The position numbers and the translations under genes were made by a program. A stretch of 64,000 nt of DNA from a virus. The stretch lies in IMG/VR virus record IMGVR_UViG_3300033475_000019. One strand, written 5' to 3'. The notes beneath the pieces were generated by a model. That model made no database searches. It saw only the letters and a program-made list of their open reading frames with translations, and was not told the DNA's origin. Positions 2,325-25,703 of the stretch are shown here, one piece after another (positions within the stretch are counted from its first letter, which is position 1; the number at the start of each line of letters is the position of its first letter).

Positions 2325-3197
2325 TCATGGGCTTGCCTCAGCCAAGTACTCCGCGCGCATCGGCATCCACGCCATGACGCGCTCCCGATCCGCCGCTCGC
2401 TGTCGAGCTCGCCTGACAGCCGGTCCCGCCGCCTCGCTCTGCGGCTCGTAGCTAGCTTCGAGGTAGCGCCGCATGCGCTCGAGGTCCCGCGCGCTGAGTG
2501 GACCCTCTAGCCGCGCCTTGGCCCGCTGAAACTCGCGCTGGCGGATCTCGAATCCGACGTAGCCGCGTCCGAGCAGCCGGCACGCAAGGCCGATCGTTGC
2601 CCGCCCCGCGTAGGGGTCGAATACGGTTTCACCGGGCTCCGTGAACCAGCTCACGAGGTCGAGCGCCTGGTCGAGCGGCTTCTCGGCCTTGTTCTTGTCG
2701 TCGCCGCGCAGGCAGGAGTGCAGGAGGGCTGTCAGATTGCCTGGGCCGTTCCAACGCTTTGCAAGCGGACGTCGTCCGCCTCTGGGACCAACGTACTGGC
2801 GATGCGTAACGAGTAGCGCCTCGAAGCCCTGCGGAGGCCGGTCTCCGCTGAGTTGCGGCATCGACCAGCGCACCCAAGGCATCGTGCGCACATACTCCGC
2901 CCCAGCTGCCTCGCACGCGATCCGCATGTCGTTGACGGACTCGACGTCGCTGTAGACGATCGACCAGCGCTTGACGGATTGAGACCAAATGGCCAGCTTC
3001 TGGCGGTCGGTGTCGGTGAGGCAATCGAAGCCGAGGTCGCGCTTGCGAGTGCCGCCGCCCTTGCTCTGGCTGGTGGCCGACGTGTGCACGTGCGCCGAGA
3101 ACGGCGGATCCGTGATCATGTGGTCGAAGCTGGAAACGCGCTCTGGCGTCGCGAATACCAAAGCGTTGCCGAGCGTGAGCGTGATCTTGGGCGCCAT
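2325..3197 (-). CDS. DNA methyltransferase, beta-class (N6-adenine or N4-cytosine type)
   Basis: Catalytic DPPF motif (MITDPPFSAH) lies N-terminal to the AdoMet-binding motif FDPYAGRATIG. Motif order IV then I is typical of beta-class amino-methyltransferases. Confidence 0.8.
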   Translation of the reverse strand: MAPKITLTLGNALVFATPERVSSFDHMITDPPFSAHVHTSATSQSKGGGTRKRDLGFDCLTDTDRQKLAIWSQSVKRWSIVYSDVESVNDMRIACEAAGAEYVRTMPWVRWSMPQLSGDRPPQGFEALLVTHRQYVGPRGGRRPLAKRWNGPGNLTALLHSCLRGDDKNKAEKPLDQALDLVSWFTEPGETVFDPYAGRATIGLACRLLGRGYVGFEIRQREFQRAKARLEGPLSARDLERMRRYLEASYEPQSEAAGPAVRRARQRAADRERVMAWMPMRAEYLAEASP

Positions 3198-3844: not shown

Positions 3845-4281
3845 CAGTCGGCCTCCATCGAGTACTTAAACTCGCGGCCCGTGTCGTCGCCGATCGGGTT
3901 CGCAAAGCCGAACTTCAGCGCGACTGCCTTGAACATCGGAAGGCCATACTGTGCGTAGCCCTCGGTCTCTTCCGGGTCGGGCTCCTCCAGCACCCACATC
4001 CACATGCGGATCACTTCCGCCATGCAGCCCGCGGAGATACCGCGCTTGTTGAGCGCCTTCTCGAAACCAAACGCTACGTCCTCGCGGAGCTGCTCAAGCA
4101 CCGCTTCGCGCGTCCAAGGCTTGGGCGCGGTTGGCTCTGCGCCATCCCGGAGCTTGAATCCGAAGTCTTCGTAGTTTTCGACGGGGAAGAAGTCGACCAG
4201 GCGCCCGTAGTCACGACCGTCGATCGTCTCCGACTTGCGCCCGCTTCGCACGGTCTCGAGAATTTGTTCTTGTGTCAGCAT
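3844..4281 (-). CDS. hypothetical protein
   Basis: ATG at 4281 (MLTQEQILETV...) overlaps the upstream TGA. The track start 4317 is a non-ATG codon. 145 aa, acidic. Confidence 0.6.
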   Translation of the reverse strand: MLTQEQILETVRSGRKSETIDGRDYGRLVDFFPVENYEDFGFKLRDGAEPTAPKPWTREAVLEQLREDVAFGFEKALNKRGISAGCMAEVIRMWMWVLEEPDPEETEGYAQYGLPMFKAVALKFGFANPIGDDTGREFKYSMEAD

Positions 4282-4826
4282 CAGCGATCCCTTCTTCCAC
4301 CGCGCAACCGCCCCCAATGATTCATCGGGTGCAGCAAGCCAGCGCTCCCCGACTCCTTCACGCGCTCAGCAGCGAGATTCGCCACCAGCACCGCCCGGCG
4401 ACCGGACATCTCGTCGTCGGCCTTTTGGCGCTCGAAGAGCATGAGCTCGTGGGAGAGGTCGGAGCCGCCGCCGTGGGGGCCGGTGCGTTCAGACTGCTGC
4501 TCGATGTTGAATCGGTGGCAGGCCTCCTTCACGTCGACGGGGGCGTCGCTGGCAGGATCGATGCCGCAGAAGGTCCGCTCCTTTCGAGAGACCAGCTCCA
4601 GGTCGTCTTCATAGTGGCTAGTGCCGTCGACGCGGCACACGAACCGACCGCCATGCGCTTCGGGCGTAAACCCGCGCGGGCGAACCTCGGTGATCTTGCC
4701 GACGTGTCCCAACCGGTGAGGGCCATCGCTGCGCTTTAGACGGACCGTATCCCCGACTTGGAACGGCGCATCGCTCGGTGGCTGCCCGATTCCGACCGCT
4801 GGAAAGTGAGTGATGGTGATTGCCAT
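4281..4826 (-). CDS. hypothetical protein
   Basis: Internal ATG at 4826 (MAITITHFPAV...) is preceded by GGAGGAG. The longer track ORF (to 5060) is an Arg-rich run-on. Confidence 0.6.
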   Translation of the reverse strand: MAITITHFPAVGIGQPPSDAPFQVGDTVRLKRSDGPHRLGHVGKITEVRPRGFTPEAHGGRFVCRVDGTSHYEDDLELVSRKERTFCGIDPASDAPVDVKEACHRFNIEQQSERTGPHGGGSDLSHELMLFERQKADDEMSGRRAVLVANLAAERVKESGSAGLLHPMNHWGRLRGGRRDR

Positions 4827-4965
4827 GTTCTCCTCCAAAACTCCGAAGAAGCGGCAGCGACTTTGCTGGGGGAAGCTCGGTCGCTGACCTTCTTCGAAGT
4901 CCAACCGCGAGGGTTGGATCCGAAGGCTCGCCACTGCGTTGCACCCGGCGAGCTGGGCGCGTCTG

Positions 4966-5787
4966 TTAGCCGTTGCTGCCCGGCTCCGGATCGTCATCGA
5001 CGGGCGCCTTGATCTTGCCTGACGCCTTGGCTGTCTCCGGCGCGGACAGCACCTCACCATCAGCCGTCACGAGCGGCGCCGTCGCCGTGAGCGCCGCTTC
5101 GAGCGCAGCCGGCGTGCCCGGCATCAGGGCCGCTGGTGTGCTCACCACCGGCTCGCCGTAGGTGTCGATTGCTTCTTCGGCGGTACCCATGCCCATGCCG
5201 AATTCGGGGCAGTAGAGGTCCGTCCACCACGCGCCGGCGCGGTACATGAACATCTTCTCGGGCATGGTCTTCCACTTGCTGCCCGACTTCGAAACCCAGC
5301 CTTCCGACTTCGCCAGGCCCCAGGTGATGAGCGGCCCTTCGCAGGGGACGCCGGTCCGCAGGTCCTTGGAGTAGGCGCGGCAGCCGTAGTCGTCCGTCCC
5401 GGGCTTGCCTTCCCACTTGAAGCGCAGCGGCTCGAAGCGGCCGGAGGCGTTCACGGTGGCGATCAGGAACTTGGCGCGCAGTCCCGGTCGGCCGTGGATG
5501 ACGTCCATGTTCTGGCAGATCATGAACACGCTGCACCCGATGCGGTTCGCCAGCTCCATGGCGATCATGCAGTTGGGGATGTTGTTCCGGAACGTCTCGG
5601 GCAGCAGCGAGCTAGAGCTCAGCGCCTTGGCCATGCGCTGCGCGACGATGAATGCGCTCTCGCCCGAGAATGCGCTCAAGACGCGCGAGGGCTCACCGCT
5701 GGTCGTCAGCACGTCGTCGACCGGCGCGAGCGCCGCCGCTGGCTCGTTCGCGGGTGTCGGCGCCCCGTTCTTGGGCTCGAGGTTCAT
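4966..5787 (-). CDS. recT: RecT/Red-beta superfamily single-strand annealing protein
   Basis: 273 aa from ATG 5787 (MNLEPKNG...). Central AQRMAKALSSSSLLPETF..NCMIAMELANRIG and C-terminal W..MPEKMFMYRAGAW pattern resemble Bet/RecT. Lies directly downstream of a PD-(D/E)xK exonuclease gene. Confidence 0.75.
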   Translation of the reverse strand: MNLEPKNGAPTPANEPAAALAPVDDVLTTSGEPSRVLSAFSGESAFIVAQRMAKALSSSSLLPETFRNNIPNCMIAMELANRIGCSVFMICQNMDVIHGRPGLRAKFLIATVNASGRFEPLRFKWEGKPGTDDYGCRAYSKDLRTGVPCEGPLITWGLAKSEGWVSKSGSKWKTMPEKMFMYRAGAWWTDLYCPEFGMGMGTAEEAIDTYGEPVVSTPAALMPGTPAALEAALTATAPLVTADGEVLSAPETAKASGKIKAPVDDDPEPGSNG

Positions 5788-5812
5788 TTGTTGGGTCACG
5801 GTCCTTTTCCTT

Positions 5813-6670
5813 TCAGGCCCACGGGGGCAATTCGATCTCTTTGATGCCGACCGGATAGCCCGGCCAAACGTTGTCCCGCACGCAAGTGGCGAGCAGGTCG
5901 ATGTCGGCGCGCGCGGCGCTGTAGCCGCGACCGATCCCATCGGCGTCGAGCGTGTACGTGGCCACCGCGTACGGAGGCAGCTTCTCGCACGCCAGAAACA
6001 CGAAGTACTGCACTGGTATCCCGAGCTCGACCGCTGCGCTGCGATAGAGCGCGTCTTGCACGTGGTACCGCCACTTGGCGATGTCCTTGCGGAAAGCCTC
6101 CCAGCGCGCATCGAGCGTGGACTTGGCGTCCAAGATCATGGCGTGGCCCTCGACGTACCGATCGAGTCGGCTCTTGCACGTCAGGCCCGTCTCGCTGTCG
6201 CGCCACTTCAGGGTCAACTCGCTGACGCCGTCGCGGATCATCTTTCCGGCGAGCGGGTGCTGGCGGACAGCCGCCACCATGCCGGCGATGCAGTTGGCAT
6301 CGAAGGCGTCGAGCGGCTGCTTTCCGGCGTTGGCCGTGCGCCACTCATCGCGGCGTGTCTTGTTGGCCTTCGCGTCTTCCTTGGTGGTCTTGTCGGTCTT
6401 GCGAGTGTCGCCGAAGTCGGGAGCTATTGCGTACTCCGCCGCGAAGCGGTCGGGCTCGAGCAGCGCGCAGTGAAACGCCGCGCCGAATTCGAGAGCCTCG
6501 CTGGACTCTTCGGCATCGGTGCCGTCGAGCCACGCCTTGTAGTGCGCTGGTGAACGGTGGATCTTGTCGAGCGCGGTTTTGCTTACCACCCCGAGCGCAG
6601 GCGCATGGTAGACGGCCGGCGCGACATCGCGGTGGACGCCGTTGGGCAGGTCGAGGATCGAGTCGACCAT
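5813..6670 (-). CDS. PD-(D/E)xK exonuclease (RecE/YqaJ functional analogue)
   Basis: 285 aa from ATG 6670. Motifs SRLDRYV, ILDAKST (D-x-K) and YHVQDALY (QxxxY) are typical of RecB-family/Cas4-like nucleases. Paired with recT. Confidence 0.7.
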   Translation of the reverse strand: MVDSILDLPNGVHRDVAPAVYHAPALGVVSKTALDKIHRSPAHYKAWLDGTDAEESSEALEFGAAFHCALLEPDRFAAEYAIAPDFGDTRKTDKTTKEDAKANKTRRDEWRTANAGKQPLDAFDANCIAGMVAAVRQHPLAGKMIRDGVSELTLKWRDSETGLTCKSRLDRYVEGHAMILDAKSTLDARWEAFRKDIAKWRYHVQDALYRSAAVELGIPVQYFVFLACEKLPPYAVATYTLDADGIGRGYSAARADIDLLATCVRDNVWPGYPVGIKEIELPPWA

Positions 6671-7044
6671 CAGAACGGGATCTCCTCGTCGCCGTGCGAG
6701 TTCCGACGCTTCTGTCGCTCGCGCCACAGAGCTTCGGCCTGGTCGTAAGCCACTCGGGCGTATTGCTCGAGCTCGCTCTTCGCGGTTGATCCGTTGCGAG
6801 CGATTACGCAAAGGCGCGTCGCGACCTGGTCGAGAAATTGCTGACGATCGTTTCGCGCCAGTAGTCGGGCGACGAATACCCGCAACCCAAGGACGGCGTC
6901 GAATTCCCCGCCGCTCAGCTCGCCCAATGTGCGCTCCCACATCATCTCGTAGAAACCGGATGAGTGGCGATCTCGATGGCGCGCCACCTCCGCCTCCAGC
7001 GCTTCGTGGCGGTCTTTGTGAAGTTTCAGCTCCTCAGGCTTCAT
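6670..7044 (-). CDS. hypothetical protein
   Basis: ATG at 7044 (MKPEELKLHKDRHEALE...); 124 aa; the upstream part of the track ORF is an Arg/Gly-rich run-on. Confidence 0.55.
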   Translation of the reverse strand: MKPEELKLHKDRHEALEAEVARHRDRHSSGFYEMMWERTLGELSGGEFDAVLGLRVFVARLLARNDRQQFLDQVATRLCVIARNGSTAKSELEQYARVAYDQAEALWRERQKRRNSHGDEEIPF

Positions 7045-13199: not shown

Positions 13200-13573
13200 T
13201 TCTCGCGTCGACACTGGTTTACATCGCCGGCCCTTTCAGCGGAGCCGACCGCGGAGCCGTCGAGGCCAACATCCACCGGGCAGCGCTCCGCGGGGTCGAG
13301 GTAGCCAAGCTCGGCGCTTGCCCGATCGTGCCGCACAGCAACACGTCACTCCCGGAGTACGAGCACGTGCAGCCGTACAAGTTTTGGATCGCTGCCACGC
13401 TCGAGATGATGCGGCGCTGCGACGCCCTGCTCACGGTCGACGGTTGGGAGCTGTCGAGCGGCGCGCGCGGGGAGGTCAACGCGATGCAGAAGATGGGCAA
13501 GCCGGTGTTTCACGACCTGGACCATTTGCGCATGTGGCTCAACGGTCGCCGGCTGGAGATCTTGGAGTCATGA
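13196..13573 (+). CDS. DUF4406/nucleoside 2-deoxyribosyltransferase-like protein
   Basis: 125 aa. The pattern VYIAGPFSG...N...A...G..PIVPH...W......L..CDALL.V.GWE.SSGARGE...A...GKPVF matches my memory of the DUF4406/NDT-like fold family. Confidence 0.6.
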   Translation: MILASTLVYIAGPFSGADRGAVEANIHRAALRGVEVAKLGACPIVPHSNTSLPEYEHVQPYKFWIAATLEMMRRCDALLTVDGWELSSGARGEVNAMQKMGKPVFHDLDHLRMWLNGRRLEILES

Positions 13574-13785
13574 AAAGCGCCAAGCCCCTCACCGCTCCCG
13601 AAGGCGCCGAGGTCTTCACACTCCAGCAGGCGGCCGCTTTTCTTCAGACTTCGCCCCACACCCTCATGAAGCGCGCCGCCACGGGCGAGCTCCCCGGCCG
13701 CCGTCTCGGCTCGGAGTGGCGCTTCACCCGCACCGATCTGCTCAACTGGATCAGCAATGGCAATCGTCCAGCGAAAACTGCGTAA
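13570..13785 (+). CDS. excisionase-family (MerR-like) HTH protein
   Basis: ATG 13570 (ATGA overlap). FTLQQAAAFLQTSPHTLMKRAATGELPGRRLGSEWRFTRTDLLNWI is the classic excisionase-type HTH pattern. Overlaps the int start by 29 nt. Confidence 0.7.
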   Translation: MKSAKPLTAPEGAEVFTLQQAAAFLQTSPHTLMKRAATGELPGRRLGSEWRFTRTDLLNWISNGNRPAKTA

Positions 13786-15205
13786 CGGCAAAACCGCCAA
13801 CTGGATCGTTCTGCGTTGGCAGGGCGAGCAGGAGTGGATCCACGGCGGCTACGACGCGCGCGCGGCCAAGCGCCAGCACGACGAGATCGCCAAGCAGATC
13901 GAGGCGAAGACCTACGTGCCCGGCGTCTCGAAGCGCTGCACCAATGCCGCCTGGCTCGAGCGCTACCTGGACTGGCGCGAGACCGAGTCGAAGGGCCCGC
14001 CGTACGAGCGCCAGGCTCTCGAGCACCACGTGCTGAGCGTGACCTGGTTCGGTGAGCTGGCCGTATCCGACACGCGCCCCAAGGACGTCGAGCGCCTCAT
14101 CAGCGAGATCCGCAAAGTGGGCAAGATCGGCGAGAAGACCATCGCGAACACGTTCACGGTGTTGAGCGGCGCCTTTAAGCGCGCCGTGTTCGAAGAGCTG
14201 CGCAGCGACAACCCCTGCGAGGGGCTGCCGCCCGGCACCATCCGCCGCCGCTCGGCCAAGAAGAAGCGCTTTCCCTACCTACGCTCCGAGGTCCGCCAAA
14301 TCTTGGCTTGCGAAGAGGTCTCGCTGCCGATGCGGGTGTTCCTGCACCTGGCCTTCTACACGGGCATGCGCAAGGGCGAGATCTGCGGCCGGCGCTGGCG
14401 CGATTGGGACCGCTTGGCCCAACCGCTCGGCGGCCTGCTCGTTCACACGCAGTACGACGACCAGCCGCTCAAGACCGACGACGAGGAAGAGGCGCACCCG
14501 CGCGTGGTTCCCGTCCACCCCGAGCTCGCCAAGGTGCTGACCTGGTGGTGGGCCGAGGGCTTCGAGCTGGTGTACTGCCGCAAGCCCCAGCTCGACGACT
14601 TCATCGTCCCGACGTTCGGCACGGCCGGCGGGCATTCGGCGTCCAGCGCCTACAAGGCGTTCCGGACGGCCATCAAGGTGGCTGGCGTCGCCAACCGGAC
14701 GCTGCACAGCAGCCGCCACACCTTCGTCAGCGTGGCCCGCTCCAGCGGCGCCGAGGGCAAGGTCGTCGAGCGCATCACCCACAACTCCGAGGGCGACGGC
14801 TTCGAGACCATCGAGACCTACACGGACTTCGAGTGGGAGGCGATGTGCAATGCCGTGCTGGGCGTTGACTACTCTGTTGATCGAAACGCTAGACCAGCGT
14901 TTTTCGTGGCTCCGACTCTAGGACTCGAAGCTGGGCCTAGCTCGGGAGATACGGGCGGTGACGGGTCCAAACACGTCGAAACCGATGGTTCAGAGGAGCC
15001 GCCAAATCACCGCCAGCATTGGGTTCCGCCTGCTCCGGTTGATCCGAGTCAAGTCCGCCAGGCTCGCCTGCTGGCGCTTGCGACCATCGACCCCGAGGGC
15101 GCCAAGCCCGGGCTCGCCGTCTGCCGGGCCGCTGACCGGGTAGCGACTGGCGACCTGGCCGGCGCGGTCGAAGAGCTCCGGCAGGAGGCGGTCCGCCGTG
15201 GCTAA
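13757..15205 (+). CDS. int: tyrosine integrase with a roughly 95-aa C-terminal extension
   Basis: 482 aa. Catalytic box RTLHSSRHTF...ERITHNSEG...IETYTD (R, HxxR, H, Y355). The ORF continues about 127 codons past the Tyr, through a locally AT-richer patch. Confidence 0.85.
   Translation: MAIVQRKLRNGKTANWIVLRWQGEQEWIHGGYDARAAKRQHDEIAKQIEAKTYVPGVSKRCTNAAWLERYLDWRETESKGPPYERQALEHHVLSVTWFGELAVSDTRPKDVERLISEIRKVGKIGEKTIANTFTVLSGAFKRAVFEELRSDNPCEGLPPGTIRRRSAKKKRFPYLRSEVRQILACEEVSLPMRVFLHLAFYTGMRKGEICGRRWRDWDRLAQPLGGLLVHTQYDDQPLKTDDEEEAHPRVVPVHPELAKVLTWWWAEGFELVYCRKPQLDDFIVPTFGTAGGHSASSAYKAFRTAIKVAGVANRTLHSSRHTFVSVARSSGAEGKVVERITHNSEGDGFETIETYTDFEWEAMCNAVLGVDYSVDRNARPAFFVAPTLGLEAGPSSGDTGGDGSKHVETDGSEEPPNHRQHWVPPAPVDPSQVRQARLLALATIDPEGAKPGLAVCRAADRVATGDLAGAVEELRQEAVRRG
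14907..14929 (-). other. tRNA 3'-end-like segment (candidate attP core) inside int
   Basis: Minus strand reads TTCGAGT-CCTAG-AGTCGGA-G-CCA: T-loop, 3' T-stem, 7-nt acceptor strand, discriminator and CCA in correct register. No 5' tRNA half. Adjacent hairpin AAACGCT-agacc-AGCGTTT at 14884-14902. Confidence 0.45.
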
Positions 15206-15503
15206 CGCCCTCCGCCTCGTCTCCGGCGGCGCCTCGCCCCGCTGCGCTCCGGCCCTCGGCCCCGTGCTGGCCTGGCACTGCGCGCTCCGCGACCTTGAGC
15301 TGGCCCAGGCGCGCGAGCTCGACCTGCTGGGCCGCCGCCTCTGCTGCCCGCTCCACGACCACCAGGCGCTGCTCGGGTTGTCGGACGAGCTGCGGGCCGC
15401 CAAGGCTGAGATCGACCGGCTGGCGCGGCGTGAGAAGGTCGAGCGGCTGAGGGCCAGCGGTCGAAGGTGGCTGCGGGTGGTGGGAGGGCGCGATGCCGGC
15501 TGA
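15198..15503 (+). CDS. hypothetical protein
   Basis: GTG start overlapping the int stop; 101 aa; coiled-coil C-terminus. Confidence 0.4.
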   Translation: MANALRLVSGGASPRCAPALGPVLAWHCALRDLELAQARELDLLGRRLCCPLHDHQALLGLSDELRAAKAEIDRLARREKVERLRASGRRWLRVVGGRDAG

Positions 15504-16202: not shown

Positions 16203-16330
16203 CCGCCTCACCCCCACCGAGCTGCTCGACGCCGATCTCGCGATTCTCCTCGTGACTGCGCCGATCTGGATCGCGGGCTTTGTTGGGCTCGCGGTGGCGG
16301 GGTGGTGGAACGATCGAAGGGGGGTGGCGC

Positions 16331-17644
16331 GTGGCTGAGCTCCTCCGTGCCCCGTTCCCGTGGATGGGCGGCAAGAGCCGCGCTGCCGAAATCATCTGGC
16401 GCGGCCTGGGCCCTGAGGTCGTCAACTACGTCGAGCCGTTTGCTGGCTCGATCGCGGCGCTGCTGCTGCGCCCCAACGGCGCCGGCAAGATCGAAACCGT
16501 CAACGACCTCTCGGGCGCGATCTGCAACTTCTGGCGTGCCATCAAAACCGACCCCGACGCCGTTGCCGAATGGTGCGACGACCCGGTGTCCGAGCTGGAC
16601 CTGCACACTCGCCATGCCTGGCTGGTGGTGCGGCTCGAAGAAATGGCCGAGCAGCTCCGCGCCGACCCCGAGTACTTCGACGCAAAGGTCGCGGGCTGGT
16701 GGGTCTGGGGCATCTGCCAGTGGATCGGTACCGGCTGGTGCGGCGGCGTTCGTCACGGCGAGCCGCGTCCGAACCTGAACACCGGCCAAGGCGTCCACGC
16801 GTTGGGCACGCGCGAGTTGCCGAACCAGCGCCCGCACGTCAGCGGCGACAGCGCCGGCATGGGCGTGCTGTCACAGAAGCTCCCGAACCTGTCCGGCTAC
16901 GACGTTGGTGTCCGGAGTCCGAAGCAGCAGATGCCAGAGCTGGCGGTACCGGCGCGCGCCCGCACGACCGGCAAGGGTGTGCTCAGCCAGCAGATGCTGG
17001 GCCTGCGCGTCCACAGCGGCGCGACAGGCAACGGCATCCACGCCAGCGGGCTCGCCGAAAAAATGCCCATGCTCGCGGTCAGCTCGACCGGCGGTACCGA
17101 GACCGGCCGCGGCGTGACGAGCGAGAGCGCACCCCGAGAGCATGGCCTTCCAGCCATTGGCAACGACCGCGGCATCAACGGCGTCTCGGCCCCGCCGCGC
17201 CTGGCCTGGTTCCGCGCTCTCCAGCAACGCCTGCGACGCGTTCGCGTTGTCTGCGGCGACTGGACGCGGGTGCTTGGCCCGAGCGTGCTCGGCAAGGGCA
17301 AGAACGTCGGCGGGCGACGCCCCTGCGCCGTGTTCCTGGACCCGCCTTACGACGTCACGATGCGGGCCAAGCAGATCTACGGCCACGATCGCGCCGGACT
17401 CGCGGCTGAGGTGCGGGCTTGGGCCATCGCGAACGGCGACGATCCGGATCTGCGCATCTGCCTGGCCGGCTACTTCGACGAGCACGCCGAGCAAATGCCG
17501 GCGTCGTGGACGGTCCACCGCTGGAAGGGCGCGCGCGGCTACGCCAGCGACGACAACGACAACCGCGAGCAGGAGACACTCTGGTTCTCGCCGCACTGCC
17601 TGCCTATTGACCTGCAGCCGAGCCTTTTTGGGAGGTCCGCATGA
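16331..17644 (+). CDS. dam: Dam-family (D12 class, alpha-type) N6-adenine DNA methyltransferase with a large repeat insertion
   Basis: PFPWMGGKSR..YVEPFAGS near the N-terminus and VFLDPPYD near the C-terminus. GTG 16331 is preceded by GAAGGGGGG (track start 16280 is possible). Insertion of degenerate G-x-G-[VI] repeats at about 16757-17195. Confidence 0.8.
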   Translation: MAELLRAPFPWMGGKSRAAEIIWRGLGPEVVNYVEPFAGSIAALLLRPNGAGKIETVNDLSGAICNFWRAIKTDPDAVAEWCDDPVSELDLHTRHAWLVVRLEEMAEQLRADPEYFDAKVAGWWVWGICQWIGTGWCGGVRHGEPRPNLNTGQGVHALGTRELPNQRPHVSGDSAGMGVLSQKLPNLSGYDVGVRSPKQQMPELAVPARARTTGKGVLSQQMLGLRVHSGATGNGIHASGLAEKMPMLAVSSTGGTETGRGVTSESAPREHGLPAIGNDRGINGVSAPPRLAWFRALQQRLRRVRVVCGDWTRVLGPSVLGKGKNVGGRRPCAVFLDPPYDVTMRAKQIYGHDRAGLAAEVRAWAIANGDDPDLRICLAGYFDEHAEQMPASWTVHRWKGARGYASDDNDNREQETLWFSPHCLPIDLQPSLFGRSA

Positions 17645-18878: not shown

Positions 18879-20251
18879 GCGACGACGCACACAAGCTCCT
18901 GCTCGCGCACGTGAACATCGGCGCCCGCGTGCTGTCGGCGTGGTTCGATGACGCCAAGTTCCGGGCCGCGTGGGCGCCCCAGGTCGAGCTGTTCTGCGGC
19001 GACTGGCAGCGCGCCATCGCCGCCATCTGCGCCGCCCGCGGCGCCACGCTGACGCGCGACGACCTCGTGATCCAACTCGAGCGCCAGGGCAAGCTGAAGC
19101 TCTGGGAGAACGGCGGCGAAGGCGTCATCGACAGCCTGATGGCGCCGACCGATCTGAACCCGTGGGGCTCGGTCGACAAGCTCCGCCAGGTCGCCGGCGA
19201 GCGGCTGCTGCTCGAGCGGCTGACCGTGATCCGGGGTGAGATCGAGCGCGGCGACGGCATGGCGGCCGCCCGCGAGGCGCTGGCCAACGCGCTGCGTGAC
19301 GCCGACTTCTCGAGCGGGGCCAAGGCTCGGACGGTCCGCGAAAGCCTCTCCGTGGCCTACAAGCACGCCACCACGACCGAGCGCCGCCCGGGCTGCCGGA
19401 CCATCAGCAAGGAGCTCGACCGCGTGATCGGCGGCGTGACCCACGGCTCGGTGACCCTGCTCGCCGCGCCGACCAGCTGGGGAAAGTCGAGCTTCATCGT
19501 CGGAACCGCCAACCGCGTACTCCGCGACAAGCAGCGCCCGCTGATCGTGACGTTCGAAGACCCCGAGCGCATGTTCGGCTCGCGCCTGTTCCTGACGCGG
19601 ACCAACGTGCACGCGATGCGCCTGCGCGAGGCGCGGCTGCTCAACGACGAGCACCGCAAGCTAGCCAATGCGCTCGCCGACGCCGAGGACATCCCGTGGC
19701 TCTTGCCGGCAATCGGGCGCAGCGCTGAGGCAGTGGCCTCCGACATCCGGAGCCTCGTCGTGGCGCACGGCATCGACGTCGTGATGGTCGACTACATGCA
19801 GCGCATCCGGCTCGCGGCGCGCTCGCAGGACCGACGCAACGAGATCAACAGCATCTGTTACCTGCTCACCGACGCGATCAAAGAAGCCGGCGCGGGCGGC
19901 ATCCTGTTTAGCCAGATCACCGAGGACGAGCGCACCGGCAAGCTCAAGGCGCGCGAGTCCGAAGATCTGCACAACTCCGCAGAGAACATCCTTTTCGGCA
20001 AGAAGCGCGTCGAGCAGGACATTGACGCGGAAGGCAAGAAGGTCGGCGAAAAGATCTCGCGCGAGATCTGGGTCGAGAAGGTCAAGGAGGGGCCCGTAGG
20101 CTTCTCGATCCCGCTGAATTGGAACCCGCACTCCGCGTGCTTCATCAGCGACTACGACGCCGAAGATCGCCAGCAGCAACTCGGCCTGCCGCCGACCGAG
20201 CCTGGGCATGACCCCAGTTACGACGACTTAGACGACCGATACGGAACCTAA
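18875..20251 (+). CDS. dnaB: DnaB-family replicative helicase
   Basis: 458 aa from ATG 18875 (ATGA overlap). Walker A LLAAPTSWGKSSF, Walker B VVMVDYMQRI, RecA-like C-terminal domain. The track start 18722 gives an Arg/Pro-rich run-on. Confidence 0.8.
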   Translation: MSDDAHKLLLAHVNIGARVLSAWFDDAKFRAAWAPQVELFCGDWQRAIAAICAARGATLTRDDLVIQLERQGKLKLWENGGEGVIDSLMAPTDLNPWGSVDKLRQVAGERLLLERLTVIRGEIERGDGMAAAREALANALRDADFSSGAKARTVRESLSVAYKHATTTERRPGCRTISKELDRVIGGVTHGSVTLLAAPTSWGKSSFIVGTANRVLRDKQRPLIVTFEDPERMFGSRLFLTRTNVHAMRLREARLLNDEHRKLANALADAEDIPWLLPAIGRSAEAVASDIRSLVVAHGIDVVMVDYMQRIRLAARSQDRRNEINSICYLLTDAIKEAGAGGILFSQITEDERTGKLKARESEDLHNSAENILFGKKRVEQDIDAEGKKVGEKISREIWVEKVKEGPVGFSIPLNWNPHSACFISDYDAEDRQQQLGLPPTEPGHDPSYDDLDDRYGT

Positions 20252-20262
20252 CGGGAGAGACC

Positions 20263-20871
20263 ATGAGCCAAGAATTCACCGACGCCATCCAAGACGAAAC
20301 CATCGAAAAAGCCATGGCCGAGTCGGGCGAGATGCCCGCCCGCGACACTTACTTCGAGCTAGTCGAATGCTCGCTGACCGATGAAGAGAAGGCCGCCCGC
20401 CGCGTCGAGCTCGAGGGGATCGACCGCGAAATCATCCGGCTCGAAGAGCAGAAGAAGGCCGACAACAAGGTGATCAACGGCGAGATCAAGGTCCAGAAGG
20501 CCAAGAAGGACTGCATCTTGGAAGCGCTCGAGTCGGGAGCGGAGAAGCGCCAGGTCGAGTGCTACGAATTCGCGGTCACGTCGCCCCAAGGCGTGCTGCT
20601 GCACTACGAGATCCGCCGCGTCGACACGGACGAAAAGGTCGACGAGCGCGCAGCGACGAGCGACGAGCAGGAGGAGAATCGCCAGCCGGGCCTGTTTGAT
20701 GGTGGTGGGTCCGCGCCGCCGCCGGCCGATGACGACGAAGACGAAGAGCCGTTCGAGCCGACACCGGAAGCGCTGGCACAGGCCGCCGAGGACGAGGGGC
20801 GGGTGGTCAAGACCAACTCGAAGGCGGTCAGGGGCAAGAAGGCAAAGCAGAATGGGAGCGCCGAAGCGTGA
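20263..20871 (+). CDS. acidic hypothetical protein
   Basis: 202 aa; coiled-coil middle and Asp/Glu-rich tail. Confidence 0.55.
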   Translation: MSQEFTDAIQDETIEKAMAESGEMPARDTYFELVECSLTDEEKAARRVELEGIDREIIRLEEQKKADNKVINGEIKVQKAKKDCILEALESGAEKRQVECYEFAVTSPQGVLLHYEIRRVDTDEKVDERAATSDEQEENRQPGLFDGGGSAPPPADDDEDEEPFEPTPEALAQAAEDEGRVVKTNSKAVRGKKAKQNGSAEA

Positions 20872-21089
20872 GCGACTCTCTCGGTGAAGCGCTCCCCCGC
20901 GAGATGGCTCGCGTGCGCGATGAGGTGATTCCCCAGTACCAGCACACCGACCCGATGCTGGCGCGAGCGTGCGCGCCAGCGTTGTTCATGATGCGGCGGT
21001 CGCTCGACCTCGCGGCGAAGGCCATGGCTGAGGGCGACGTGGTTGCGATGATGCGTTGCTACGAAGACCTGAAAGGCTATACAGCTTGA
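20868..21089 (+). CDS. hypothetical protein
   Basis: 73 aa; GTG start overlapping the upstream TGA. Confidence 0.45.
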   Translation: MSDSLGEALPREMARVRDEVIPQYQHTDPMLARACAPALFMMRRSLDLAAKAMAEGDVVAMMRCYEDLKGYTA

Positions 21090-21724
21090 ACAGCTCGCCC
21101 CGAATCGTGATCGCTTGCGACCCCGGGTTGGCAAACGTCGGTTACGGGGTCGTGCGCCGGCACAGCAACTCGGCTCGCCCCGAGCTAGTCGAGTCGGGCA
21201 AGATCGAAACGCCAGCCGACTGGGGCCTTAACGATCGGCTGAAGAAGATCTGGCGCGAGCTGGCGTTGCTCTGTTGCGACAAGCAGATCCGTCCGCACTA
21301 CTTCGGGATTGAAGACCAGAACGGCGCGCGTGTCGGCGCACGCATGAACGCGAAGCGTCAACTCGACGCAGCTCGCCAAGGCAAGGCCATCAAGGCGTTC
21401 GGGTTCAACGCAAACACCGACGCAGTGGGCGAGGTCGTCGGGATCATGAAGGCAGTGGCGTTCAGCTACGGGATCCCGGTCGTGATGTACGCCCCACAGC
21501 AGGCCAAGATCGCGGTGTGCGGCAAGGGCATGGGGCACGCGACGAAGCTCGAGGTCATCAACGCAATCCGGTTCGTGATGTTTCAGGGCATCAACCAAAC
21601 GGTTGGTGAGCACGAAGCCGACGCGCTGGCAGGCGCTGTGTTCGTCGAGCGCATGGTGCACATGCAAAACAAGGTCGTGAGGGGACCGAGAGCAGCGATG
21701 CAGAAAGCAAGGAAAGCAGGCTAA
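21086..21724 (+). CDS. RuvC-like Holliday-junction resolvase
   Basis: IVIACDPGLANVGYGVV (first catalytic Asp), YFGIEDQ, EHEADALAGAVFV (C-terminal acidic pair). TTG 21086 overlaps the upstream TGA; the start is uncertain. Confidence 0.65.
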   Translation: MNSSPRIVIACDPGLANVGYGVVRRHSNSARPELVESGKIETPADWGLNDRLKKIWRELALLCCDKQIRPHYFGIEDQNGARVGARMNAKRQLDAARQGKAIKAFGFNANTDAVGEVVGIMKAVAFSYGIPVVMYAPQQAKIAVCGKGMGHATKLEVINAIRFVMFQGINQTVGEHEADALAGAVFVERMVHMQNKVVRGPRAAMQKARKAG

Positions 21725-21984
21725 TGGCACGCCATCCAAATCAGACGACAGGCTTCAACCGCCCCCTCACCCCGCGCGCCCAGCAGCTGCTAGCGCGGAG
21801 TCGGAACGTGCCGACGGGGGCGCCGCTCAAGAGGCATTGGATCCGCACCTCCAAGGGTTTCGCTGAGAATTGCAACGAGTGTGGGCGAATCATCGAGCCG
21901 AGGGCGGAACGGTATGCCGACCAGGTGAGTGGGCACTTGGTGCGGCATGTGGGGTGTCATGAGAAGGCGGAGGGGAAGCGGTGA
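21724..21984 (+). CDS. hypothetical zinc-binding protein
   Basis: 86 aa; CNECG...H..C. Confidence 0.45.
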   Translation: MARHPNQTTGFNRPLTPRAQQLLARSRNVPTGAPLKRHWIRTSKGFAENCNECGRIIEPRAERYADQVSGHLVRHVGCHEKAEGKR

Positions 21985-23051
21985 GCGACACCTACAAAGG
22001 CGAGAGCCTGCAGAAGAAGGCCGCACGGTTCGAGACACACAGGGCGAACCAAGAGTGGCTCGATCGTCACTACCCAGACTGCTTTGATCGAGGCCTGCAT
22101 GTATTCCTGGCATCGCGCGAGGGCGGCGACATCGGAGTACTGAAGCAACTAGGTGCACCGTTGCGAAATCTCGTCGGCATTGATCGAGACCTGGATGCGA
22201 TCAAAGCGTGTGCCGCAAAGTGGTGCCGTGGCGATGGCTCCGAAGAGCCGGAATTGGTCCACGCTGAGGATGCCGGAAACCAATTGGCGTGGATCAGGAA
22301 TTGCCTAGAGAAAGCTAAAGGCCTGCCTGCGCCGAATGATTGCGGGGATGCGGAGTGCTGGATTGAGAGATGGGGGCGAGAGTCAGGTTACCCCTACATC
22401 ACCTCGGTGTTTTGGGATTTCTGTGCGCACCTCGACAAGTCGACGATCGACATGTTCACCGACACCTGGCGACGTTTGTCTTACGGATCTGTGTTGTCGG
22501 TGGCGGTTCTGAAGGGGCGAGAAAAGCAACAAAGCACACACCGGGCACTGCAGGCACCACTGGCCAACCGCAAGCGAAGGCGGAGCTGGAGGAGCATCCA
22601 CCCGCCGTCCTATTCGGTGATGGCGGAGATGATGTCAGGTGCTCGCGAGTGGGACGTGTCAGGGGTATTGGAGATGATCGAACAGGAGACGGGTGATATA
22701 AACCGAACCGGTGCGCGTTGGCTGCTGATGCAGCAAGCGTTGTGGTTGGTTGACGACAAGTCGGAGCCTGCGCCAATTCTGGTGCTCGAATACCAGTCAA
22801 GCACCACGACCAGCCACGGCGTGCCCATGCTGATCTGCTCTTTTGCCAAAACGAGACTCTCGCTAGGCAGACGGCCAGCGCCGCCACCGAAGATTGTCAG
22901 GCTGAACAATGGGGACGCTCTAGCGTGGCGTAATCAAGTTCTGCAAAACGTCGACGTGGATGCCGCTGCCGATTTGCTGAACGTGCCGCGGCTTACAGCG
23001 GTTGCGTGGAAGGCTCACGCCACGCGAGGCACCTACGCGAGGACAGGTTGA
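21981..23051 (+). CDS. class-I SAM-methyltransferase-fold protein with an unknown C-terminal domain
   Basis: 356 aa. HVFLASREGGDIG (motif I-like), NLVGIDRDLDAI (motif II), LVHAEDAG (III), SVFWDFCAHL (IV region). Visibly lower GC and GC3 than flanking genes. Confidence 0.45.
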   Translation: MSDTYKGESLQKKAARFETHRANQEWLDRHYPDCFDRGLHVFLASREGGDIGVLKQLGAPLRNLVGIDRDLDAIKACAAKWCRGDGSEEPELVHAEDAGNQLAWIRNCLEKAKGLPAPNDCGDAECWIERWGRESGYPYITSVFWDFCAHLDKSTIDMFTDTWRRLSYGSVLSVAVLKGREKQQSTHRALQAPLANRKRRRSWRSIHPPSYSVMAEMMSGAREWDVSGVLEMIEQETGDINRTGARWLLMQQALWLVDDKSEPAPILVLEYQSSTTTSHGVPMLICSFAKTRLSLGRRPAPPPKIVRLNNGDALAWRNQVLQNVDVDAAADLLNVPRLTAVAWKAHATRGTYARTG

Positions 23052-23062
23052 AGCGCGTTCGA

Positions 23063-23239
23063 ATGCCCACCGTCGAGCACGTCATCCGCCGAGACCGCCG
23101 GCTCACCGAGGCCGCAAACCGAGCCATCGACGCGGCGCTGGGCAAGAGTACGCGGCGGGTGACGCGGGGCAAGGAGCCTTGGCCGAAGCCTGGTGAAGTG
23201 GACGAAGTGTTCAGGGCCGCCAAAAGAGGTGAAACGTGA
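23063..23239 (+). CDS. hypothetical basic protein
   Basis: ATG 23063; 58 aa. Confidence 0.35.
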   Translation: MPTVEHVIRRDRRLTEAANRAIDAALGKSTRRVTRGKEPWPKPGEVDEVFRAAKRGET

Positions 23240-23454
23240 AAAACATCTGGTCAGCAATCGCATGGAGCTGGCGTTACCACTTGGAGCTTTGGCTTGGTGG
23301 ACTCGCCGTTATTGCGGTCACCTGCATCGTGCTTGCTACAGCGGTCGGTGTGCGACGGGAAGAAGGCGAACGACGTGCCTTTATGGTCGACTGTCTCAGA
23401 GAGCGGAAGCAGTACGAGTGCACCGCGATCTGGCGCTGGAGGCTGCATCCGTGA
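23236..23454 (+). CDS. small membrane protein
   Basis: 72 aa; TM helix LWLGGLAVIAVTCIVLATAVGV; GTGA coupling. Confidence 0.45.
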   Translation: MKNIWSAIAWSWRYHLELWLGGLAVIAVTCIVLATAVGVRREEGERRAFMVDCLRERKQYECTAIWRWRLHP

Positions 23455-23672
23455 CGACCGAGACCAAGAAGCCGAGCGAGCGCATCACGGTCAAGATTCC
23501 GATGGGTGAACGCGCCTTTCAGCTCGAGTTAAGCGGGCCAGCGCTCTGCGACTACCTCGACGAAGAGCACGCTCGCCGCCAGGCCTTCGAGACCGACGTG
23601 TTGCAGCGCCTGGAGAAGCTGGAGAGACACAACGAAGCTGTCGCCGAGGAAGCAATGGGAGAAGACCTGTGA
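23451..23672 (+). CDS. hypothetical protein
   Basis: GTG 23451 overlaps the upstream TGA; 73 aa. The N-terminal KKPSER motif is shared with the next ORF. Confidence 0.4.
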   Translation: MTTETKKPSERITVKIPMGERAFQLELSGPALCDYLDEEHARRQAFETDVLQRLEKLERHNEAVAEEAMGEDL

Positions 23673-24163
23673 GTAAGAAACCAAGCGAGCGCTTCCTCGA
23701 ATTGCACCCGATGCGGCCGACCGACATACCGTATGGGGAAAAGCTCTACCTGCAACTGCTCGACGAGCTACACGAGAGGATCGCCAAGCTCGAAGATGGC
23801 GCGCCGCCGCCGGATGAGTTGGATCCGACGAAGACCAAGAGTCCCGAGCCAAGTGTGTGCGGCGAGTGCGGAGCCTATGCGGTTGAGGCGCTTGGCTCCT
23901 CCGTGACCAGCGCATATTACGCGCCGTACTTCGACACCGATGGTCGCCGTCACCACCACGACGCAAACGTGATTCGCAGCGCGCTGCGGTGCGCGAATGG
24001 TCACACTATCGTCCTGCCAGAAAAGATCGCAGGCAGCTGCTGGTGTGGTTGGCCGGCGAACGCAAAGGAAGCAGAGCCGGCTCCCATCGGCGTCTACGTC
24101 GGCGACAACCTCGGCAAGGTGAAGGGGTATGAGCCGGAGGCGGAAGGGAGCGAGGAGTTGTGA
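23669..24163 (+). CDS. hypothetical Cys/His-rich protein
   Basis: 164 aa; CGECG...C..H...CWC. Confidence 0.5.
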   Translation: MSKKPSERFLELHPMRPTDIPYGEKLYLQLLDELHERIAKLEDGAPPPDELDPTKTKSPEPSVCGECGAYAVEALGSSVTSAYYAPYFDTDGRRHHHDANVIRSALRCANGHTIVLPEKIAGSCWCGWPANAKEAEPAPIGVYVGDNLGKVKGYEPEAEGSEEL

Positions 24164-24471
24164 CGAGCCAGAACGAATGGGCCGATCGATTCGTGAAGAC
24201 CTTCGGCGGCATCAAGACTGCGCCTGGAGTGGTTTGGTTGCTGCCGGGTACCGAAAGAAAGCAAGACCAAGTGAGCAAGGGAATCGAGCCAAACAAGTTT
24301 CGAGGCATCGCCATCTACGCAGACCCCGAGCAGGAGATGGCCAAACGCAACATGGTCGAGCTCTCGCTGAGCAAAGCAACGAGCAAAGACCGCCAAGAGC
24401 GCGTTGACCATTTCACGCGCGTTTGGGGACGGGAGACGGTGCGCGCGGTGGTGGGAACGGACGGGGCCTGA
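24160..24471 (+). CDS. hypothetical protein
   Basis: 103 aa; GTGA coupling. Confidence 0.5.
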   Translation: MTSQNEWADRFVKTFGGIKTAPGVVWLLPGTERKQDQVSKGIEPNKFRGIAIYADPEQEMAKRNMVELSLSKATSKDRQERVDHFTRVWGRETVRAVVGTDGA

Positions 24472-24776
24472 TGGCAATCACGCGCTCTCACTGGCCGCCT
24501 CCGTTGGAGGACTACGGCGGCGACCTGCCCGAGTTGCCGCTCGCTCGAGCAATGCGAGAGAAGTCTACGGAGATCGCGCGAGAGGCGATGCTCTTGACGG
24601 CCAAGGCGCTGGACGCATGGTCGAAGCAAGCAGGGCTCACATTGAGCGAGTGGCTCGGCTTGTTCGACTACGTGGTTTCGATGAAACCTGGTGAGAAGTC
24701 GGGGACCGTCGTTCTCACTGTGACAGCGAAGGTGCGAGAGGTGCCGACGGGGCACGAGTTCACGGTGGTGGTCTAG
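24471..24776 (+). CDS. hypothetical protein
   Basis: ATG 24471 (TGATG); 101 aa. Confidence 0.5.
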   Translation: MAITRSHWPPPLEDYGGDLPELPLARAMREKSTEIAREAMLLTAKALDAWSKQAGLTLSEWLGLFDYVVSMKPGEKSGTVVLTVTAKVREVPTGHEFTVVV

Positions 24777-24890
24777 AAAACAGAAACCCCCGACATCGCT
24801 GCCGAGGGTCTCACCGTCGATTGCCGCCGCCGGATGAGACCAAGGTACCACAATGCCCCGCGCTGGTCGCGGAGCGGAAAAGGTTGAGCG

Positions 24891-25703
24891 ATGTCAGCAG
24901 CACCCGAGATTGGATTCCCGAGCGCCGTGTCCGCGCTCGCCAAAACGTCGTCCGTGATCAAGGCATCGGATGCCGAAGAGCTTCGGCGTTACTTCCGCCA
25001 AGGCGGCCTGAGCGTGTTCAACGGCAGCCCCACCGCTGCCCTCATGGCGCGGCTCAGCATGTTCGGGCGCACCGCCCACCCGTGCCCCGACTGCGGCGGC
25101 GACGTGAAGCGCTGGATCGGCGGGAGCGGCTTCGTCGCTTCGAGCCCCAAGCCCCGCGAGATGTCGGAGCGCCAGCGGGCCCTGCTCGCCGCGCTCGAGA
25201 TCTTCGTGCCGGATGGCCTCCTGCCGCCGGCCGATGACACGGTGTGCCGTACCTGCGAAGGCCGCGGCTGGTCGCTCCCCCGCCACCGCACCCACAGCCG
25301 CGCACCCATCACGGCGCGCCCCACGGGCTCCAGCAAGCGCGGGCACGCCGGCTCAGCCGTCGACGTCAACGAGTCGGACATGGCGCTCATGGGGCGCGTC
25401 TCCGGGCGCCTGGACCGCCTCAGGCTCGCTCAGGGCGACCTGCCAGCCTCGGCCACCCTGGAGGCCTTCTTCGGACCAGACGGCGGCACCCTGGGCGCGC
25501 TGTGGCACCTCGTGGCGTCGGGCAAGAGCATGCTGCGCAAGAACCCCAACAAGCTCCCGCCGCAGCAGCTTTGGCAAAACCTGCGCGCCGAGCAGTCCGA
25601 GAAACCCACCGACGGTCGAGCCGCCCAGTTCAAGGCGGCCGACGAGCAGGCCACGGCGCTCTTTCAAGCCAGCTGCCTGCTTTGGAACCAGGTGGTCCGA
25701 TGA
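24891..25703 (+). CDS. hypothetical protein with DnaJ-type CxxCxGxG zinc-finger motifs
   Basis: 270 aa; CPDCGGD and CRTCEGRG motifs. First gene after a 114-bp gap. Confidence 0.55.
   Translation: MSAAPEIGFPSAVSALAKTSSVIKASDAEELRRYFRQGGLSVFNGSPTAALMARLSMFGRTAHPCPDCGGDVKRWIGGSGFVASSPKPREMSERQRALLAALEIFVPDGLLPPADDTVCRTCEGRGWSLPRHRTHSRAPITARPTGSSKRGHAGSAVDVNESDMALMGRVSGRLDRLRLAQGDLPASATLEAFFGPDGGTLGALWHLVASGKSMLRKNPNKLPPQQLWQNLRAEQSEKPTDGRAAQFKAADEQATALFQASCLLWNQVVR

Follow-up and report, generated by a model that had tools for sequence, protein, structure and literature searches.

The 23-nucleotide (nt) sequence at positions 14907-14929 (minus strand) of the viral record IMGVR_UViG_3300033475_000019, analysed as a stretch of 64,000 nt (the window), very probably represents the attachment-site (attP) core of a temperate phage that has a contractile tail and infects soil myxobacteria of the Polyangiaceae. 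It lies inside the phage's own integrase gene, int (13757-15205, plus strand), as in Myxococcus phage Mx8, and integration at this site would rebuild the host gene for a transfer RNA (tRNA), tRNA-Asn, while converting the 482-residue integrase (Int482) into a 404-residue form (Int404). The interpretation is based on the identity of the tRNA, the homologous position of the site in Mx8, relatives in the integrated state and their breakpoints, the conservation of the integrase tail, and the predicted disorder of the linker before it.

Read on the minus strand, the core (TTCGAGTCCTAGAGTCGGAGCCA) divides as TTCGAGT-CCTAG-AGTCGGA-G-CCA into a T-loop (14929-14923), the 3' strand of the T-stem (14922-14918), an acceptor strand (14917-14911), a discriminator G (14910), and CCA (14909-14907). 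At up to three mismatches, the 23-mer has no second copy in the window, and 100 shuffled sequences gave no match. Only the part of a tRNA from the T-loop to CCA is present, not a complete cloverleaf with acceptor, D, anticodon, and T arms: ARAGORN called no tRNA gene in the whole 64-kb window, an Rfam search of 14700-15100 gave no match at E ≤ 10, and the window sequence 5' of the T-loop does not match the tRNA. The core runs antisense to int and occupies codons 384-391, which are 29-36 codons past the codon of the catalytic Tyr355 (14819-14821, plus strand), and 91 int codons remain after it. The GC content is 0.53-0.57 over 14860-14939, compared with approximately 0.66 in the surroundings. 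GC at the third codon position is 0.93 for the catalytic part of int and 0.64 from Tyr355 to the core. The core itself has 0.29, codons 392-426 have 0.54, and the final 56 codons have 0.79; the collapse spans 14822-15034, and the value recovers in the tail. A first-pass annotation of this DNA, made from the letters alone, had described a 23-mer in tRNA register, lacking a matching 5' half and hence not a tRNA gene, in a locally AT-richer patch about 30 codons past Tyr355, with a CTAGG displaced by 6 nt and a flanking hairpin AAACGCT/AGCGTTT at 14884-14902. All of these features are present, and int does run on past the core as described; only the figure of about 95 further codons had to be corrected.

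The 20-mer TTCGAGTCCTAGAGTCGGAG, which is the core without CCA, was searched against one genome per species (185,579 species, 596 Gb). Nine matches were found where approximately one chance match of a 20-mer is expected, and all nine are in Polyangiaceae or other Myxococcota metagenome-assembled genomes (MAGs). In eight, a complete tRNA-Asn(GTT) gene ends exactly with the 20-mer, and the ninth is interrupted by a contig end. Window and hosts become identical exactly at the initial T of the T-loop and remain so up to the discriminator (20 nt) or, in the two hosts with an encoded CCA, through that CCA (23-24 nt). The earlier guess of tRNA-Asn was therefore correct, and the identity reaches the 20 nt or more with a host tRNA that had been proposed as a check. 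Judged from these sequence matches, the phage is predicted to infect a member of Polyangiaceae and to target its tRNA-Asn(GTT).

In the integrase family, hundreds of uncultured homologues have the 3' end of a tRNA or transfer-messenger RNA (tmRNA) at the same position. A protein search returned 312 Int homologues at E ≤ 1e-10, mostly 440-550 residues long, and many of them show, 33-45 residues past the Tyr, one of the peptides APxxGLE[AP]G, GIEPG, SDSRTRT, SSWTRT, or LDSNRG. These peptides correspond to the three antisense reading frames of a tRNA T-arm (GLE, TRT, and DSN). An antisense T-arm tripeptide was present in 83 of 116 homologous proteins (first frame, 41; second, 25; third, 17), mostly at the same distance from the Tyr; a loose estimate of finding such a tripeptide by chance anywhere in that 80-residue span is approximately 40%. 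The same Asn-type core is read as APTQGLEP in L018 and as GSDSRTRT in L027 (L and P numbers are our handles for loci and proteins). Because the homologues use all three frames to translate one and the same tRNA piece, the constraint acts on the DNA and not on the peptide, and the tail keeps its reading frame regardless of the frame used across the tRNA piece. At the DNA level, 13 of 17 related viral contigs have an antisense 3' end of a tRNA or tmRNA 36-69 codons past the Tyr, and none of the 17 has a complete tRNA beside the 3' end of int. The overlap between int and attP is variable within the family, since the stop codon falls 29-33 residues past the Tyr in a subclade of short integrases (386-408 residues; L015, L023, L025, P0096, P0097, and P0116), and in L015 (int at 4001-5161) an Asn-type tRNA fragment lies past the stop codon, with its T-loop at 5234.

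Relatives in the integrated state were also recovered. Shorter homologues of approximately 390-410 residues end in peptides translated from a whole antisense tRNA. In L041, the int gene of P0083 (973-2193) overlaps a complete tRNA-Asn gene (2131-2204, opposite strand), and the protein ends in GLEPGTRRLTAACSTD at the stop codon. The int gene of P0042 in L128 likewise overlaps a complete tRNA-Asn gene, and the phage arm past this tRNA consists of a hairpin followed by ATCAAC-gaaaa-GTCAAC, which is the architecture of the window. L122-L124 end within tRNA-Asn, and L044 and L049 adjoin complete tmRNA genes, with the integrase shortened. For two tmRNA-targeting clades, integrated and free forms were both available; these are 82-99% identical from the T-loop onward (140 nt) compared with 8-25% 5' of the T-loop, so the breakpoint in the relatives is the 5' edge of the T-loop. 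The identity of the window with tRNA-Asn begins at this same edge. The first-pass annotation had considered that Int homologues might be conserved straight through the segment while att sites mapped elsewhere. Neither was borne out: GLE[AP]G-like peptides do recur, but three frames are used, and the att sites of the relatives map exactly at the core position.

We infer that the window phage integrates at the core in the following way. The full attP probably covers approximately 14860-15040, the core being flanked on both sides by paired arm-type repeats to which the lambda-like N-terminal domain of Int would bind. The T-loop is known as a crossover sublocation for integrases that target tRNA and tmRNA genes (PMC4383910), and strand exchange with the chromosomal tRNA-Asn would occur in or close to the 7-nt T-loop, where the identity has its 5' limit. 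At one junction, the phage-borne 3' end with its encoded CCA and the phage hairpin would restore an intact tRNA-Asn gene, the hairpin taking the place of the host terminator. In the predicted attL, the 5' part of tRNA-Asn (...GGTCCTAGG) is joined to TTCGAGTCCTAGAGTCGGAGCCACGAAAAACGCT; in the predicted attR, the window sequence ...GAGCTAGGCCCAGC and the core are joined to the host sequence downstream of tRNA-Asn. The int gene would then read into the antisense tRNA, with the last 91 residues replaced by PRTRRLTAACSTN to give Int404, and the region encoding the tail would move to the other end of the prophage. When the window was joined in silico at the core to six host tRNA-Asn loci, ARAGORN called the attL product as tRNA-Asn, and int stopped after 404 codons. 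An integration into a tRNA gene that swaps the C-terminus of Int, as suggested in the first-pass annotation, is predicted for the window phage; it matches the in-silico product and the outcome seen in the relatives L041, L128, L044, and L049. By analogy with Mx8, the truncated Int404 of the prophage would have altered, lower activity and stabilise lysogeny, and excision would rebuild the full gene; on the same analogy, the tail may act in integration and the arrangement may function as a switch, for which the conserved and confidently folded tail offers indirect support.

Several points weigh against this interpretation. No lysogen, attL, or attR of the window phage itself was found in the searchable collections, and the 22-mer joining the core and the phage arm (AGTCGGAGCCACGAAAAACGCT) had no match in the metagenome and viral contig collections. 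Other searches were negative as well: a protein search with the C-terminal 102 residues of the predicted Int404 gave four word-sharing candidates, none significant; no contig encoding the window's own Int is on record in the searchable collections, and megablast of 8000-30000 against the phage collection returned no match. The identity with the tRNA begins at the T-loop, without the 5' T-stem strand that Mx8 retains, and the displaced CTAGG could reflect insertion damage to an ancestral site. A promoter and terminator scan made no call, and the hairpin is not a canonical terminator. The tail profile gave no significant match to the Mx8 tail (hhalign E = 0.18), and the excisionase (Xis)-like protein encoded upstream of int has no sequence similarity to Mx8 Uoi, so the Mx8 regulatory model is transferred by analogy only. 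The NCBI bin containing the contig is labelled Steroidobacteraceae, not Polyangiaceae; the phage contig is probably mis-binned, because the core matches only tRNA-Asn genes of Polyangiaceae and other Myxococcota and the integrase family is myxobacterial.

Some of these points would also suit an inactive relic, in which an ancestral attP was damaged and the phage integrates elsewhere or never. The CTAGG (14940-14936, minus strand) has the sequence of a 5' T-stem strand and is displaced from the T-loop by exactly 6 nt, or two codons, as a small insertion between them would produce, and no lysogen of the window phage was found in the collections. We consider a relic unlikely, as the 20-23 nt needed to restore the tRNA are perfectly intact, and so are the catalytic residues of int, the excisionase-like gene, and the tail. 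Moreover, the 5' T-stem strand is not needed, because most relatives in the attP state lack it and the breakpoint of the matched pairs lies at the 5' edge of the T-loop. Since the attP of most relatives also lacks this strand, the displaced CTAGG is most simply a coincidence; it may otherwise be a trace of a 2-codon insertion, and it is probably not meaningful. A partial tRNA 3' end without its 5' half also resembles the repeat at the far end of an integrated prophage, in which case the fragment would be a displaced tRNA end (attR-type) at the prophage border. This is very improbable for the window, where neither a second copy nor a complete tRNA occurs in 64 kb, int is flanked on either side by co-oriented phage early genes whose stop and start codons overlap, and no host genes directly adjoining 14907 or 14930 were seen in the full contig. 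The int open reading frame (ORF) also crosses the fragment into a tail that is conserved in free phages, such as the ~121.7-kb phage encoding P0028. The window therefore shows the unintegrated attP arrangement, as had been proposed from the phage genes flanking int.

The recurrence of APxxGLE[AP]G-like peptides in many homologues would be expected if a GLE-type Int peptide were conserved at the protein level and merely resembled an antisense tRNA, with att elsewhere. We give this explanation hardly any weight: other homologues read the same DNA in the other two frames, as DSRTRT or LDSNRG, the catalytic part has a third-position GC of 0.93 and the core one of 0.29, disorder is predicted for the segment, and the breaks in integrated relatives fall exactly here. 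The first-pass annotation had also allowed that the likeness of the 23-mer to a tRNA end might be due to chance, since the fragment is short; the generic T-loop motif TTCRANY is common, and spurious T-loop-like matches occur elsewhere. The probability of this is negligible given nine matches in 596 Gb against about one expected, all of them tRNA-Asn 3' ends of a single lineage, and a position homologous to the attP of Mx8.

In the preferred reading, with the core as a functional attP, the flanking DNA supplies the hairpin and candidate arm sites. The hairpin, CGAAAAACGCT-ggtct-AGCGTTTCG (14906-14882, minus strand), lies directly 3' of the tRNA end, and its inner part is AAACGCT-ggtct-AGCGTTT on the tRNA-sense strand (14902-14884). 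The 66-nt hairpin stretch has a folding energy of -20 kcal/mol (z = -2.8), lower than that of any of 200 shuffles, and Mx8, L041, and L128 have hairpins in the same place. The hairpin of Mx8 is a canonical terminator; that of the window is not called a terminator because it has no T-run. Past it, the direct repeats TCAAC (14880-14876) and GTCAAC (14869-14864), 12 nt apart on the minus strand (14864-14880), also code for VD..VD. Cross-locus comparison revealed that Asn-type relatives, among them the integrated L041 and L128, have paired GTCAAC-like repeats equally far from the tRNA end, and we infer that the pair forms candidate P' arm-type Int sites. Two further direct repeats read from the sequence, GTTTCGAC (14982-14975) and GTTTGGAC (14972-14965), are weak candidates (GTTTNGAC repeats; 14965-14982, minus strand). 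A repeat search of 14700-15250 gave weak repeats only, so the arm sites, taken from the cross-locus comparison, stay candidates. Phages of the tmRNA-targeting clades have paired direct repeats of their own in the arms, ATGTCATAA twice and TGGCAAAA twice, at L044, L046, and L055 (approximately 45-70 nt past the tmRNA 3' end) and at L047, L049, L051, and L056. They lie about as far from the core as the GTCAAC repeats of the Asn clade and the CTGTCAC repeats of Mx8 do and are probably clade-specific arm-type Int sites.

The integrase was identified as a lambda-type tyrosine recombinase by its ORF, the PF00589 domain, the catalytic residues, homology to Mx8 IntP, and an AlphaFold model. R205, H317, R320, H342, and Y355, the R-H-R-(H)-Y set of tyrosine recombinases, are invariant in an alignment of 36 homologues, Mx8 included, and Tyr355 aligns with the catalytic Tyr region of Mx8 IntP. 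The predicted layout is an N-terminal arm-binding beta-sheet domain, a core-binding domain, a catalytic domain (to approximately residue 368), a disordered linker, and a helical tail. In the AlphaFold2 model, built with a 20-sequence alignment, the N-terminus is predicted to form a three-stranded sheet and a helix, and the best PDB matches of the model are full-length lambda Int (1z1b and 1z1g). Sequence conservation among the homologues stops near residue 368. The linker at residues 372-433 has predicted local distance difference test (pLDDT) scores of 25-32 and is predicted to be disordered; its codons 392-433 (14930-15055, plus strand) are also the P arm of attP, with a third-position GC of 0.54 compared with 0.93 for the catalytic part and no conservation among homologues. 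Because attP sits in the region encoding this disordered linker, the needs of the DNA (the tRNA end, the hairpin, and the arm sites) are compatible with translation.

The conserved C-terminal tail (residues 434-482; 15056-15205, plus strand) is predicted to be a three-helix bundle, with pLDDT scores of 78-91 and a third-position GC of 0.79. Its motif, FDAxQRRLLKLAEVDPExARPGLAVCRGL..GD...L, is common to at least 15 of the 120 best homologues. In P0002, P0032, P0036, P0046, and P0051, a second C-terminal module unrelated to the three-helix tail replaces the latter over the C-terminal 70-90 residues, with the motif GHxT..F.G...TVT.WE..TGIPRKTIA.RL..GW..E.ALT.P.D.RK. From its sequence (TGIPRKTIA-RL-GW), this module looks helix-turn-helix-like; a Pfam search with both tail types gave no match. 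The Mx8-type arrangement is widespread among Myxococcota phages, with tRNA-Asn, tmRNA, and other tRNAs as targets. We tentatively raise the possibility that the more than 300 homologues form a large undescribed radiation of Myxococcota phage integrases, in which attP routinely sits in a disordered, frame-tolerant linker before a detachable C-terminal module of at least two unrelated kinds, and the reaction reversibly removes an integration-specific domain from its own enzyme. If so, this would be a general self-editing directionality switch and not a peculiarity of Mx8, and the tail could be what reads the attP arms or the excisionase.

The gene upstream of int (13570-13785, plus strand) is excisionase-like and encodes 71 residues from an internal ATG; it has an HTH_17 domain (Pfam PF12728, E = 5.5e-11) and overlaps the start of int by 29 nt. 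HTH_17 genes also lie directly 5' of int in the relatives L041 and L122-L128. The gene after int begins at 15198, 8 nt before the int stop codon, so that the two overlap. Downstream of int are co-oriented early genes (Sigma70_r4, a D12 methyltransferase, and a DnaB-type helicase), followed by terminase, tail sheath, and baseplate genes. The related integrase P0028 has the same synteny in a ~121.7-kb phage found in many samples, and its recovery at different contig positions suggests circular permutation. This phage (L125) carries its own tmRNA (tag ANDNAVLARAAA) and a tRNA-Met, at 5259-5603 and 5735-5809. Two DNA methyltransferase genes are present in the window, one for a D12-class N6-adenine enzyme downstream of int (16280-17644) and another at 2325-3197 on the minus strand; Mx8 too has an adenine methylase gene (mox) near the int region. 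The window region 20000-25000 has a GC content of 0.58-0.63, compared with approximately 0.66, and strongly positive GC and AT skew. The ORFs 21981-23051, 23193-23672, and 23669-24163 in it show a weaker third-position GC bias, and the region may be a recently acquired module.

With respect to the host, none of the nine host tRNA-Asn loci holds a lysogen of this integrase family, since tblastn with Int detected no Int at any of them. The window integrase is HTJ17790.1, listed by NCBI under a Steroidobacteraceae MAG. In a Polyangiaceae MAG (L011), the terminal 15 nt of a large serine recombinase ORF with Recombinase and Zn_ribbon_recom domains (5611-6720, plus strand) lie within the 3' end of this tRNA-Asn gene (6706-6781, minus strand). 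CCA follows the tRNA in that MAG, a terminator hairpin is lacking, and another kind of mobile element may use this tRNA-Asn as well. For an uncultured phage represented by a 69-kb contig, the core gives a prediction of host and target that is precise to the base and contradicts the Steroidobacteraceae bin label. Genetic tools for Polyangiaceae are scarce, and int-attP vectors from Mx8 and Mx9 are used in Myxococcus. The segment 13570-15205 holds int and attP together with the excisionase-like gene and could serve as an integration cassette in Polyangiaceae, for example in Sorangium. The site is of moderate to low interest for its mechanism and is more useful for assigning a host and, potentially, in genetic work.

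A comparison of the window Int with 50,697 phage records gave Mx8 Int as the best match, and Mx8 IntP is its closest characterised homologue. The two proteins are 28% identical over 323 residues (residues 56-367, pairwise E = 3e-31), and the homology ends at approximately residue 367. In GenBank D86464, the Mx8 recombination core (ACGGGTTCAAGTCCCGTACTCCTCGCCAC) is annotated at 2387-2415, inside intP. On the strand antisense to intP, it reads ACGGG TTCAAGT CCCGT ACTCCTC G CCA C and is followed by the terminator hairpin and tandem CTGTCAC repeats. The annotated core thus has the same anatomy, strand, and relative position as that of the window, in line with the first-pass proposal of an Mx8-style attP inside int. 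Integration of Mx8, whose attP lies within int, makes a new 3' end of int and alters the properties of the enzyme, acting as a molecular switch (PMC6070905), and the integrases of both Mx8 and SSV extend across attP (PMC4383910).

The window system has every feature of the Mx8 IntP/attP kind that can be tested by sequence. The integrases are homologous, and the core is a tRNA 3' end that lies antisense to int past the Tyr, with a hairpin and then paired direct repeats beyond it. In both phages, the start of int is overlapped by a small gene (uoi in Mx8, the HTH_17 gene here), a likeness of position and domain only. Integration of Mx8 swaps the C-terminus of Int for a short peptide from the antisense tRNA, the last 112 residues of IntP reportedly being replaced by 13, and for the window the replacement of 91 residues by 13 is predicted. 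Mx9 is said to follow a principle similar to the change from IntP to IntX in Mx8. The two systems differ in their targets, which are tRNA-Asn of Polyangiaceae for the window and reportedly tRNA-Asp of Myxococcus for Mx8. Identity extends over 29 nt from the 5' T-stem strand in Mx8 and over 20-23 nt from the T-loop in the window, and the core lies 59-68 codons past the Tyr in Mx8 compared with 29-36 in the window. The tails and the excisionase-like proteins are not detectably similar. Mx8 is short-tailed, whereas the window phage, known from its sequence alone, has the sheath and baseplate genes of a contractile-tailed phage.

The SSV-type system of archaeal fuselloviruses also has an att site inside the integrase gene, a tRNA target, and an int gene that is altered on integration (PMC5861418, PMC4383910). 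The window integrase was not assigned to this type: SSV integrases have the tetrad R..K..R..Y (PMC5861418), compared with the invariant H317 here, and the host tRNA is bacterial, from Myxococcota. SSV integrases come from archaea and have been characterised as simple recombinases that act reversibly and lack arm sites (PMC5861418). The SSV int gene is interrupted on integration, whereas the window Int would be shortened at the tail only, and no sequence relationship between them was seen.

Classical phage integrases of the lambda, P4, and HP1 types, which target tRNA and tmRNA genes, share with the window the heterobivalent lambda-like fold with an N-terminal arm-binding domain and the restoration of the gene by a phage-borne 3' part of a tRNA or tmRNA. 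In those systems, attP lies beside int, whereas the attP of the window is intragenic and translated as a linker; integration would therefore edit the enzyme's own gene and remove its conserved tail. The Mx8 mechanism is already known, and the window adds a well-supported further example of it in which the target (tRNA-Asn) and the host group (Polyangiaceae) are new.

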